From NCBI RefSeq assembly GCF_001761385.1, contig NZ_CP017476.1, forward strand, positions 2,408,718 to 2,440,717: a stretch of 32,000 bases of DNA, written 5' to 3'. Positions 18,717-19,442 of this stretch are shown here, piece by piece; positions within the stretch are counted from its first letter, which is position 1; every line of letters begins with the position of its first letter. This DNA is from Hydrogenophaga crassostreae (GTDB taxonomy: Bacteria > Pseudomonadota > Gammaproteobacteria > Burkholderiales > Burkholderiaceae_C). A model generated the notes under the pieces. It made no database searches. It worked only from the letters and a program-made list of their open reading frames with translations, and was not told where the DNA came from. The position numbers and the translations under genes were made by a program.

Positions 18717-19442
18717 ATGGCTCAATGCACAGCACCATCACGCGGACACCGAACCGCATCCGCGGCTGAGAATTGCCCCGCGTGCAGTTCCCGCGGCCGA
18801 TACAGCTATGGGGGCGGCTATGGCAGCGGATACAGCAGCTCCAGTCCGTCCTATGGATCGGGCACCGGCGGGGGGAGTCGCAGCACTGGAGGTGGCAGTT
18901 CTGGCGGCAGCCCCAAGCCGCGCTGGTCGCGCGCCGGTTCGTCCGTTTCGTATACGCCCGCCCAAGTGCAGTCCCTCACGCCGATCCGCGAGACCGTCGA
19001 GCGCCGAGCAGCGGCCCAGCCCGAGTTGCGCGACGTATTCCTGTGCCACGCATGGGGCGATCGGCAGGGCGCCGCCAAGGAGTTGCGTGATTTGCTGGTG
19101 GTGGCCGGCGTAAAAGTCTGGTTCAGCGAGAACGATCTTCCTCTTGGCGTACCAATGATGCGCGCCATCGACAAGGGGCTGGCTGCTTCGCGCATCGGAC
19201 TCGTGCTGGTGACGCCTGCGCTGCTGGAGCGCCTGCCGACCGAGAGCGTCGCCGACAAAGAGCTGTCCACACTTCTCGCGGGGAATTTGCTCGTTCCCAT
19301 CATCCACAACACGACGTATGAAGCGTTGCGCAATGTCAGCCCTATGCTGGCATCTCGAAGCGGACTGAGTACGGCAGAGGACTCTATGGCCGTAGTCGCT
19401 ACAAAGATTGCCGAACTGGTCCAGGTGCTAACAGCACCTTAG
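18717..19442 (+). CDS. TIR-domain protein with a Gly/Ser/Tyr-rich low-complexity N-terminus
   Basis: RBS GAAGGAG lies 8 nt upstream. Residues ~106-235 read DVFLCHAWGD...AKELRDLLVVAGVKVWFSENDLPLG...IDKGLAASRIGLVLVTPALL...ADKELSTLL, a TIR_2-like pattern. Residues 27-68 read RYSYGGGYGSGYSSSSPSYGSGTGGGSRSTGGGSSGGS. Confidence 0.8.
   Translation: MAQCTAPSRGHRTASAAENCPACSSRGRYSYGGGYGSGYSSSSPSYGSGTGGGSRSTGGGSSGGSPKPRWSRAGSSVSYTPAQVQSLTPIRETVERRAAAQPELRDVFLCHAWGDRQGAAKELRDLLVVAGVKVWFSENDLPLGVPMMRAIDKGLAASRIGLVLVTPALLERLPTESVADKELSTLLAGNLLVPIIHNTTYEALRNVSPMLASRSGLSTAEDSMAVVATKIAELVQVLTAP

Follow-up and report, generated by a model that had tools for sequence, protein, structure and literature searches.

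Higher-order assembly or condensation is what activates the TIR proteins AbTir and SARM1/TIR-1 and the TIRs of plants. Among bacterial TIR proteins, those that stand alone are the least understood. In Escherichia coli, the single-gene, TIR-only systems TIR-V, TIR-VI as well as TIR-IX confer abortive protection; portal or tail-fibre proteins act as its triggers, and it depends on the active site of the TIR. The same study cloned every TIR cluster with more than 10 members, and 20 of the 32 clusters tested were inactive (Wang et al. 2024, PMC11350192). A systematic survey of Thoeris, on the other side of the field, removed "TIRs found in standalone proteins" (bioRxiv 10.64898/2025.12.03.692087). 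Here, we describe a standalone TIR gene of Hydrogenophaga crassostreae, at positions 18717 to 19442 of a 32,000-nucleotide stretch of contig NZ_CP017476.1 (positions 2,408,718 to 2,440,717; hereafter the window). Its family is among the most widespread and best conserved of the solitary TIRs. What appears to be new is a portable N-terminal module on this standalone TIR enzyme, composed of a predicted zinc knuckle and a predicted disordered tract. We found no description of this architecture in the literature on the E. coli family member WP_001389195, on PDC-S66, on DUF1883-TIR proteins, or on low-complexity domains and condensates of bacterial TIRs; nor is there mention of an N-terminal knuckle or low-complexity tract in Wang et al. 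(PMC11350192).

The gene and its product are laid out as follows.

18704 to 18709, forward strand: ribosome-binding site AAGGAG, 7 nt 5' of the ATG, read directly from the DNA
18717 to 19442, forward strand: coding sequence of the solitary TIR-domain protein of 241 amino acids (aa), complete, stop codon included, taken from the list of open reading frames (ORFs)
18717 to 18785, forward strand: residues 1-23 (MAQCTAPSRGHRTASAAENCPAC), probable zinc knuckle, recognised from invariant Cys/His positions; metal binding is predicted
18726 to 18728 (C4), 18747 to 18749 (H11), 18774 to 18776 (C20) and 18783 to 18785 (C23), forward strand: candidate ligands of the knuckle
18786 to 18917, forward strand: residues 24-67, Ser/Gly/Tyr/Arg-rich low-complexity tract, predicted to be disordered
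18918 to 19031, forward strand: residues 68-105, conserved linker, PRWS..GS.V.YTP and then a helix (88-100) that precedes the TIR domain
19032 to 19427, forward strand: residues 106-237, TIR domain, from the TIR_2 match, profile matches, Foldseek, the predicted local distance difference test (pLDDT) and the ratio of non-synonymous to synonymous divergence (dN/dS)
19242 to 19244, forward strand: E176 codon; the residue does not vary within the core family and lies inside a four-residue LPxE insertion relative to AbTir-type TIRs
19260 to 19262, forward strand: codon of E182, the predicted catalytic Glu, from hhalign, HMMER, its position in alphaC and its invariance

The ORF, its E182 codon and the peptides quoted from it are all exactly as they stood in a preliminary description, which had been made from the letters of the window alone. 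An annotated 'TIR domain protein' of H. crassostreae (P0001) is 100 % identical to the product, a database search returned at least 8000 candidate homologues (the best 120 being 72-100 % identical, most of them over 97-100 % of the length), and Pfam TIR_2 (PF13676) matches residues 107-199 with an E-value of 7.8e-12 and 46.2 bits (cut-off 28). The ORF is therefore not a chance reading frame.

The TIR fold that the preliminary description had read in the C-terminal part was borne out by this TIR_2 match, by profile comparison and by structure. Against solved bacterial TIRs, the family profile matched TcpB/BtpA, PdTIR, AbTir and BtTir at E ~1e-16. Foldseek with an AlphaFold2 (AF2) model returned 4lzp, 3h16, 7uxu and 7uxr with target-normalised TM-scores of 0.75-0.84; the matches to TcpB, PdTIR and AbTir had a probability of 1.00, and the fold recovered was the flavodoxin-like one of TIR domains. 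The model comes from the run with the more diverse alignment, which gave a pLDDT of 80-96 over the TIR region; a shallow alignment gave a pLDDT of 52.6. Since the profile matches and the Foldseek matches lead to the same four proteins, the domain is assigned, by sequence and by model, to the AbTir/TcpB/PdTIR clade; it is not a TIR of the ThsB type (PF08937).

Three glutamates had been considered for the active site, E182 foremost, with E171 and E176 as alternatives. Aligned by hhalign (A3 against A5, probability 99.8 %), the segment S177-V178-A-D-K-E182-L lies opposite G-W-T-N-Y-E-L of AbTir-type TIRs, and L173-E176 falls opposite a gap, that is, a four-residue insertion. The KEL of the TIR protein was also aligned by HMMER with the KEL of PdTIR, with the caveat on register that MAFFT and gapless HMMER alignments are shifted by four residues, or one helical turn, from hhalign. 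Helix alphaC is predicted at residues 177-188. E182 is invariant even when divergent members are included, E176 does not vary among core members, and E171 lacks conservation; in the divergent members P0263, P0257 and P0242 position 176 is A, R and T, respectively, and all three retain E182. The hhalign register, the span of alphaC and the divergent members that lose E176 while keeping E182 thus make E182 the best candidate for the catalytic Glu, as first proposed. Neither alternative was retained: E171 was dropped for its lack of conservation, and E176, less likely as a residue that sits in the insertion and is absent from divergent members, was set aside as well. The canonical WxxxE motif is not complete, with Val178 at the position of the Trp and no Trp anywhere in residues 166-192. 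As a separate observation, one metagenome representative of 236 aa (P0253) keeps the knuckle (CTAPVNGH...CPRC) and a KWS..YT..LTPVR linker, carries a spacer that is not of low complexity, and has a degenerate TIR domain without FLCHAW, E176 and E182; it is possibly a catalytically dead derivative.

We then turn to the N-terminus. The preliminary description saw its cysteines (C4 and C20-P-A-C23) but took them to be incidental to the start of the protein. They are in fact invariant, and together with H11 they form an invariant C-H-C-C/H motif. Across 64 sequences, C4, T5, A6, P7, G10, H11, C20, P21, A22 and C23 do not vary, giving the pattern M-A-x-C-T-A-P-x-x-G-H-x8-C-P-A-C with the spacing C4-x6-H11-x8-C20-x2-C23. 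The fourth ligand may be Cys or His, as the divergent P0242 and P0182 carry His (CPVH for CPAC). AF2 placed the knuckle at a pLDDT of 65-73, and no Pfam or NCBIfam model, zinc-finger models included, matched residues 1-26. From this pattern of conservation, residues 1-23 are a probable small zinc-binding knuckle.

The tract that follows is conserved in another manner. Among 197 distinct versions its sequences cannot be aligned, while composition and length (28-50 aa, median 41) are kept, and the same held in every full-length homologue examined, in agreement with the earlier expectation that the tract would be conserved. Ser accounts for 35.5 %, Gly for 27.2 %, Tyr for 12.5 % and Arg for 10.4 % of residues; Gly, Ser and Tyr together make up 76 %, and Gln (0.2 %) and Asn (1.6 %) are scarce. 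At the median, a tract contains three [GS]Y[GS] motifs, five Tyr, five Arg/Lys, no Asp/Glu and about one aliphatic or aromatic residue other than Tyr. Its net charge is ~+5 and its pLDDT in the AF2 model ~30. The tract had been called FUS-like, and with regard to composition this stands: it is a G/S/Y-rich, aliphatic-poor stretch of predicted disorder bearing [G/S]Y[G/S] motifs, as prion-like domains of the FUS type are. For the rest the likeness fails, the tract lacking both an enrichment in Gln/Asn and a length above 100 aa, and being instead devoid of Gln, about one-tenth Arg, positively charged and short.

Between tract and enzyme lies a linker with the consensus (R/K)PRWS-x2-GS-x-V-x-YTP-x-Q-V-x2-L-x-P-x-R-x2-V-E, in which R69, W70, S75, Y79, T80, L87, P89, R91, E95, A98, P102 and L104 are invariant. 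Its helix 88-100 is modelled with a pLDDT of ~89 and packs on the TIR domain, with residues 68-85 at low confidence; the helical segment aligns with the N-terminal extension of TcpB in 4lzp. Purifying selection acts on all three alignable parts, dN/dS being ~0.19 in the knuckle, ~0.16 in the linker and ~0.07 in the TIR domain. Between homologues, synonymous positions are nearly saturated (pS, the proportion of synonymous differences, is 0.63-0.72), and with non-synonymous divergence so low, the lineages must be old and every alignable part under constraint. The knuckle seems as well conserved as the enzyme. Its invariant candidate ligands, the steady composition of the tract, these dN/dS ratios and the recurrence of the module on another TIR clade, described next, suggest that the N-terminus is functional.

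Knuckle and tract are not confined to this family, being present on another TIR clade too. We compared residues 1-105 with 1.84 billion representative proteins and obtained 168 clusters, nearly all of which are the solitary TIR family itself, its fragments, or chimeric contigs. Longer hits (TamB, AEP-TOTE and beta-propeller fusions), which would have put the module on other effectors, are interrupted within the linker or within the TIR; they look like chimeric or frameshifted metagenome contigs and were therefore not counted as architectures. A second family (P0260, P0277, P0279, P0284, P0288, P0291, P0297 and P0301) does carry a knuckle followed by an S/Y/G-rich tract. Its knuckle, MATCTAPRNGHRSASAAANCPAC, is identical at 19 of 26 positions (73 %), although the whole proteins are only ~37 % identical. 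The TIR domain in this case is of the canonical AbTir type with GWTNYELDG, and in place of the PRWS...YTP linker there is the VPEIYRRPLSEVPSLV linker of DUF1883-TIR proteins, so that knuckle and tract occupy the place which DUF1883 (PF08980) takes in the sister clade. P0277 matches the PDC-S66 model with an E-value of 2.7e-69. Because knuckle and tract also sit on an AbTir-type clade in place of DUF1883, they look like a portable module, and would constitute an exchangeable N-terminal unit specific to TIR enzymes. The occurrence of one module on two different TIR clades amounts to a natural domain-swap experiment.

The second family is likewise solitary, on mobile elements or in defence islands (loci L095-L099). 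A recurring 433-aa neighbour was considered as a ThsA-like partner and discarded, as it turned out to be two unrelated proteins, one a PDC-S25-type SIR2 protein and the other without hits. In L096-L099 the second-family gene is part of a conjugative element, where only a few genes separate it from TrbL upstream; AlpA comes after it in L096-L098, with an integrase as well in L097.

That the Hydrogenophaga gene has no partner was part of the preliminary description, and it proved correct for this locus and across species. In the window, we compared the 20 largest non-overlapping ORFs with Pfam and PADLOC; ThsA, SIR2, Macro, SLOG, STING, CBASS cyclase/CD-NTase, reverse transcriptase and Argonaute were all absent from these 20, which disposes of a hidden or decayed partner among them. 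Elsewhere, ORFs were called and clustered in the 80 best loci from GTDB species (+/-10 kb). The only cluster found in most of the 80 was the TIR gene itself; next came tyrosine integrases (10 loci) and ImmA/IrrE peptidases (7 loci), followed by generic SDR, GGDEF, WYL and LysR genes. No Pfam or PADLOC family occurred more than three times among the 124 immediate neighbours (among the matches listed, the top 25 families), and within the same 80 loci and 25 families no effector of the ThsA SIR2-SLOG, Macro or other Ths kind recurred next to the TIR gene. The median gap to the neighbouring genes is 164 bp upstream and 102 bp downstream. At the DNA level, blastn against 90 other loci confined the homology to 18717-19421, and in the nearest locus, L010 (82.5 % identical in DNA), the match still runs only from 18691, 26 bp upstream, to 20 bp downstream, so that ahead of the ORF just the region of the ribosome-binding site is shared. 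As homology ends at the ORF in these 90 loci, a conserved flanking antitoxin, small RNA or attC site is excluded. A partner of the toxin-antitoxin or amyloid-signalling (BASS/NLR) kind was also sought; there was no conserved adjacent small ORF or NLR, and the flanking DNA is not conserved beyond +/-26 bp. Variable neighbours, together with DNA similarity that stops at the ORF, indicate that the unit which is inherited and transferred is the single gene. The preliminary description had staked its reading on a TIR profile match, an aligned catalytic Glu, a tract shared with homologues and the lack of a partner that homologues keep beside them and that is merely missing here; all four are what we found, the last in the form of neighbours that do not recur.

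The gene travels widely. Taking one genome per GTDB species, at least 584 species carry it at 64-90 % identity, from Alpha-, Beta- and Gammaproteobacteria, Bacteroidota, Cyanobacteria, Planctomycetota, Acidobacteriota and Myxococcota to one bacterium of the candidate phyla radiation (CPR). It is present on 341 plasmids, 170 of them conjugative; Klebsiella hosts 140 of the 341, and Klebsiella, Escherichia, Citrobacter and Enterobacter together host 241. In E. coli, 112 matching places were located in 110 of 5426 complete genomes (2 %), 104 of these places being chromosomal, where the context is a CP4-57-like island. Carriage by phages was ruled out in so far as 50,697 phage records contained no full-length homologue.

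In Hydrogenophaga, the TIR gene lies in the cargo of an integrative conjugative element (ICE) that also bears defence-type genes (SNF2 helicase, KAP NTPase and Ppl) and genes for resistance to copper and other metals. Other features in the window are these (strand given where it is the reverse).

2290 to 4248: DUF3701-type tyrosine integrase, a marker of the ICE
5114 to 7138: SNF2 helicase, DpdE/ZorD/DrmD-like, a defence-type gene upstream in the same element
7569 to 10544, reverse strand: KAP-family NTPase of 991 aa, PifA-like (E 5.6e-33)
11120 to 13966: full-length Ppl homologue (PADLOC PDLC02208, E 2.3e-137)
16535 to 17323: HupE/UreJ, metal-handling cargo, overlapping a 230-aa ORF of no known family (17313 to 18005)
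18075 to 18320: 81-aa ORF with a lipoprotein-type signal (…LVTLTAC), in the spacer upstream of the TIR gene, no family match
19940 to 19915, reverse strand: strong intrinsic terminator, after the 76-aa ORF
20037 to 20267, reverse strand: 76-aa ORF (MKTLELYRWEHTDPLTGK...), in the downstream spacer, without Pfam or NCBIfam match
20440 to 21156: replication protein of ICEs, STY4534 family (DUF3577), a second marker of the element, immediately downstream from the TIR region
21745 to 23244: C5 cytosine methyltransferase of 499 aa, a third marker of the ICE, no restriction partner visible
23828 to 26206, reverse strand: Cu-type P1B ATPase with YHS and HMBD domains, metal-handling cargo
28028 to 28618: MerR-family regulator, metal-handling cargo
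28857 to 31063: CusRS-like two-component pair, metal-handling cargo

The flanks had been described as AT-richer, which is right (51-52 % G+C against 58-61 % in the TIR gene), and as ~400 and ~600 bp of non-coding DNA, which is not: the spacers measure ~711 bp upstream and ~594-997 bp downstream, and both are partly coding. Neither the 81-aa nor the 76-aa ORF is conserved beside TIR homologues when the DNA is compared with other loci. An Rfam scan of 17900-20600 gave no match, and a search for similarity to plasmids in the segment 19443-20439 was negative.

Elsewhere, the neighbours of homologues include Hma-like, Gabija, HerA, BREX helicase and TIR-NLR genes; on four metagenome contigs (L002-L005) the TIR gene lies beside an Hma-like methylase/helicase system. 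In Pseudoalteromonas sp. B160 (L001, 7773-16495) it belongs to an array of small co-oriented genes with direct repeats of 300-800 nt, 71-100 % identical, that contain 33-aa ORFs weakly matching DDE_Tnp_1_6; the repeats are not typical attC sites, and we make no claim of an integron cassette. On the IncFIB plasmid pA708-2 of Klebsiella quasipneumoniae (L090, 4498-8316) it is placed between two directly oriented ISNCY-family transposase genes and looks like the cargo of a composite transposon, and on a Bacillus plasmid (L091) it stands alone. The plasmid pBBta01 of Bradyrhizobium sp. BTAi1 (L092, 1079-2962) bears, ~3 kb from the solitary TIR gene and on the opposite strand, a separate set, in which a gene of the caspase family and one for a metallophosphoesterase come after two small TIR genes; the set resembles type IV Thoeris.

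How might such a gene work? We lean, with modest confidence, towards a one-gene abortive-infection NADase, an enzyme that cleaves nicotinamide adenine dinucleotide (NAD+), whose N-terminus serves as both sensor and assembly switch. The protein would be a self-contained TIR enzyme, carried as cargo by mobile elements and acting in defence against phages or other invaders. In the resting cell its TIR domains would be dispersed and inactive. The basic knuckle and the Arg/Tyr-rich tail would engage a trigger, for instance an invading nucleic acid or a structural protein of a phage, or else the N-terminus might self-associate through Tyr/Arg contacts. With the local concentration of TIR domains raised, these may stack in the head-to-tail manner of AbTir filaments, by which the active site around E182 would become complete; NAD+ would then be hydrolysed or cyclised, and its loss would halt growth of the infected cell. 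A separate effector would not be required. That the knuckle and the Tyr/Arg-rich tract are specifically a portable nucleation module, which condenses or polymerises upon an invader or at a threshold and so switches NAD+ cleavage on, is a more speculative proposition that we judge rather unlikely. This hypothesis is compatible with all the data and draws on the composition of the tract only. If true, no earlier immune protein of prokaryotes would have been gated in this way, by a prion-like low-complexity domain appended to it, and evolution would have arrived here at a parallel to SARM1/TIR-1 and plant TIRs, which a phase transition activates.

Several points speak against an assembly-gated defence NADase. 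Val178 takes the place of the Trp in the WxxxE motif, and NADase activity is therefore not guaranteed. In the AF2 model the N-terminus does not touch the TIR domain with any confidence, and at ~41 aa the tract is short compared with eukaryotic phase-separating domains. An identity of 62-91 % across phyla is far above that typical of diversifying defence sensors, and conservation this strong would be better explained by a conserved cellular or universal target or trigger than by an arms race. Being present in 2 % of E. coli genomes, the family probably belonged to the 32 clusters that Wang et al. tested, the majority of which were inactive, and enzymatic or phage data on the family were not found in the searchable literature.

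The closest alternative keeps the one-gene NADase but takes the N-terminus to be a sensor that binds nucleic acid or a single protein on a flexible spacer, the tract being a linker bound only in its length. The net charge of ~+5 without acidic residues would suit a binding tail, as would the common pairing of zinc knuckles with Gly-rich or RGG-like tails in nucleic-acid binding; a length held at 28-50 aa while the sequence drifts is what a spacer would show, and a knuckle that is 73 % identical between two TIR clades whose members share ~37 % overall hints at a specific ligand. A pure spacer, though, would have no need of 12.5 % Tyr in [GS]Y[GS] motifs or of the near absence of aliphatics, and no nucleic-acid-binding profile of Pfam matched, so we give this version only a small chance. 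If the protein does not act by itself, it may be an orphan ThsB of the Thoeris type, which would make a signal, similar to cyclic ADP-ribose (cADPR) or another nucleotide, for an effector encoded elsewhere or by a co-resident system. The PADLOC ThsB model indeed matches the full length, AbTir-clade TIRs make 2'cADPR, and at some loci further genes of the TIR or Thoeris-like kind lie only a few kb away, as on the Bradyrhizobium plasmid with its TIR and caspase pair. Yet no effector-type gene recurs nearby in 80 species, where the ORF alone is the conserved and transferred unit, and no ThsA-type effector is found among the ORFs scanned in the window. A gene that crosses phyla on plasmids, ICEs and units flanked by insertion sequences would, if it depended on an unlinked partner, rarely be left functional, and we regard this explanation as very improbable.

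A role other than against phages is doubtful too, if a little less remote. The gene might be a fitness factor of the mobile element, by competition, exclusion or post-segregational stabilisation, or a Tcp-like factor directed at eukaryotic hosts, as has been proposed for TcpB/BtpA. Its residence on conjugative plasmids, ICEs and integrative islands, its absence from 50,697 phage records, and a cross-phylum conservation so high as to suggest a universal target (NAD+ or a conserved host component) all accord with this, and among solved structures the nearest are those of Tcp proteins, which have been described as immunosuppressors. Against it, most carriers are free-living environmental bacteria (Hydrogenophaga, Nitrosospira, Pseudoalteromonas, cyanobacteria, the CPR bacterium), the protein has no secretion signal, no antitoxin or immunity ORF is conserved beside it, and several of its neighbours are bona fide defence genes. 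We thus continue to favour, with due caution, a one-gene abortive-infection NADase with its own N-terminal sensor and switch. If the N-terminal module is such a switch, then 241 aa would offer a compact model of how a TIR without a partner is silenced and activated, and would put to the test in bacteria the low-complexity-driven assembly that is known for eukaryotic TIRs.

To place the family among known systems, PADLOC 2.0 matches residues 1-237 to positions 1-234 of the 234 of its model PDLC00424 ('ThsB1|ThsB') with an E-value of 3.7e-123; for a Thoeris call, PADLOC requires ThsA as well as ThsB. The family thus has a catalogue entry already, yet as part of a system of two genes, the second and defining one of which is missing. 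The ThsB model and the two-gene rule together make it unlikely that a solitary copy is reported by pipelines of the PADLOC type, and a common plasmid- and ICE-borne gene would thereby stay uncounted in them. With the ThsB proteins of Thoeris (types I-XI) it shares the TIR domain and the PADLOC model under which it is filed; it differs in having no adjacent effector in the loci examined and a domain that is not of the PF08937 ThsB_TIR type. The single-gene candidate PDC-S66 of PADLOC covers the TIR part only (residues 93-236 against 137-281 of 282, E 5.2e-24). TIR-V, TIR-VI as well as TIR-IX resemble the solitary family in being one gene in which only a TIR domain is recognised, and the solitary TIR family occurs in E. 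coli as well. The family as such can no longer be considered unknown, since the ThsB model covers its full length and work in E. coli has already validated defence genes that consist of a standalone TIR (PMC11350192).

The best profile and structural matches remain AbTir, TcpB (BtpA), PdTIR and BtTir (7uxu, 7uwg, 8g83, 4lzp, 4lqc, 4c7m, 3h16 and 7uxr). Like these, our protein is the product of a single gene with a non-enzymatic N-terminal region and one TIR domain, and its candidate catalytic Glu lies at the same position of alphaC. It departs from them in the Val that stands for the Trp of WxxxE, in the LPxE insertion of four residues before alphaC, and in a TIR identity of only ~25-30 %; and where they have DUF1883 or a coiled coil, it has a Cys/His knuckle and a disordered tract, with no Pfam match in the N-terminus. 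The tract is like FUS in its [GS]Y[GS] motifs and in a composition rich in G/S/Y and poor in aliphatics, but it is only ~41 aa long where FUS has more than 200 aa, and it is rich in Arg and without Gln. SARM1/TIR-1 and the TIR-only proteins of plants, finally, are likewise TIR NADases of a kind whose relatives need higher-order assembly; condensation in SARM1 and plant TIRs is driven by the substrate or by the TIR domain itself, whereas in the family described here it would be the task of an appended low-complexity domain.

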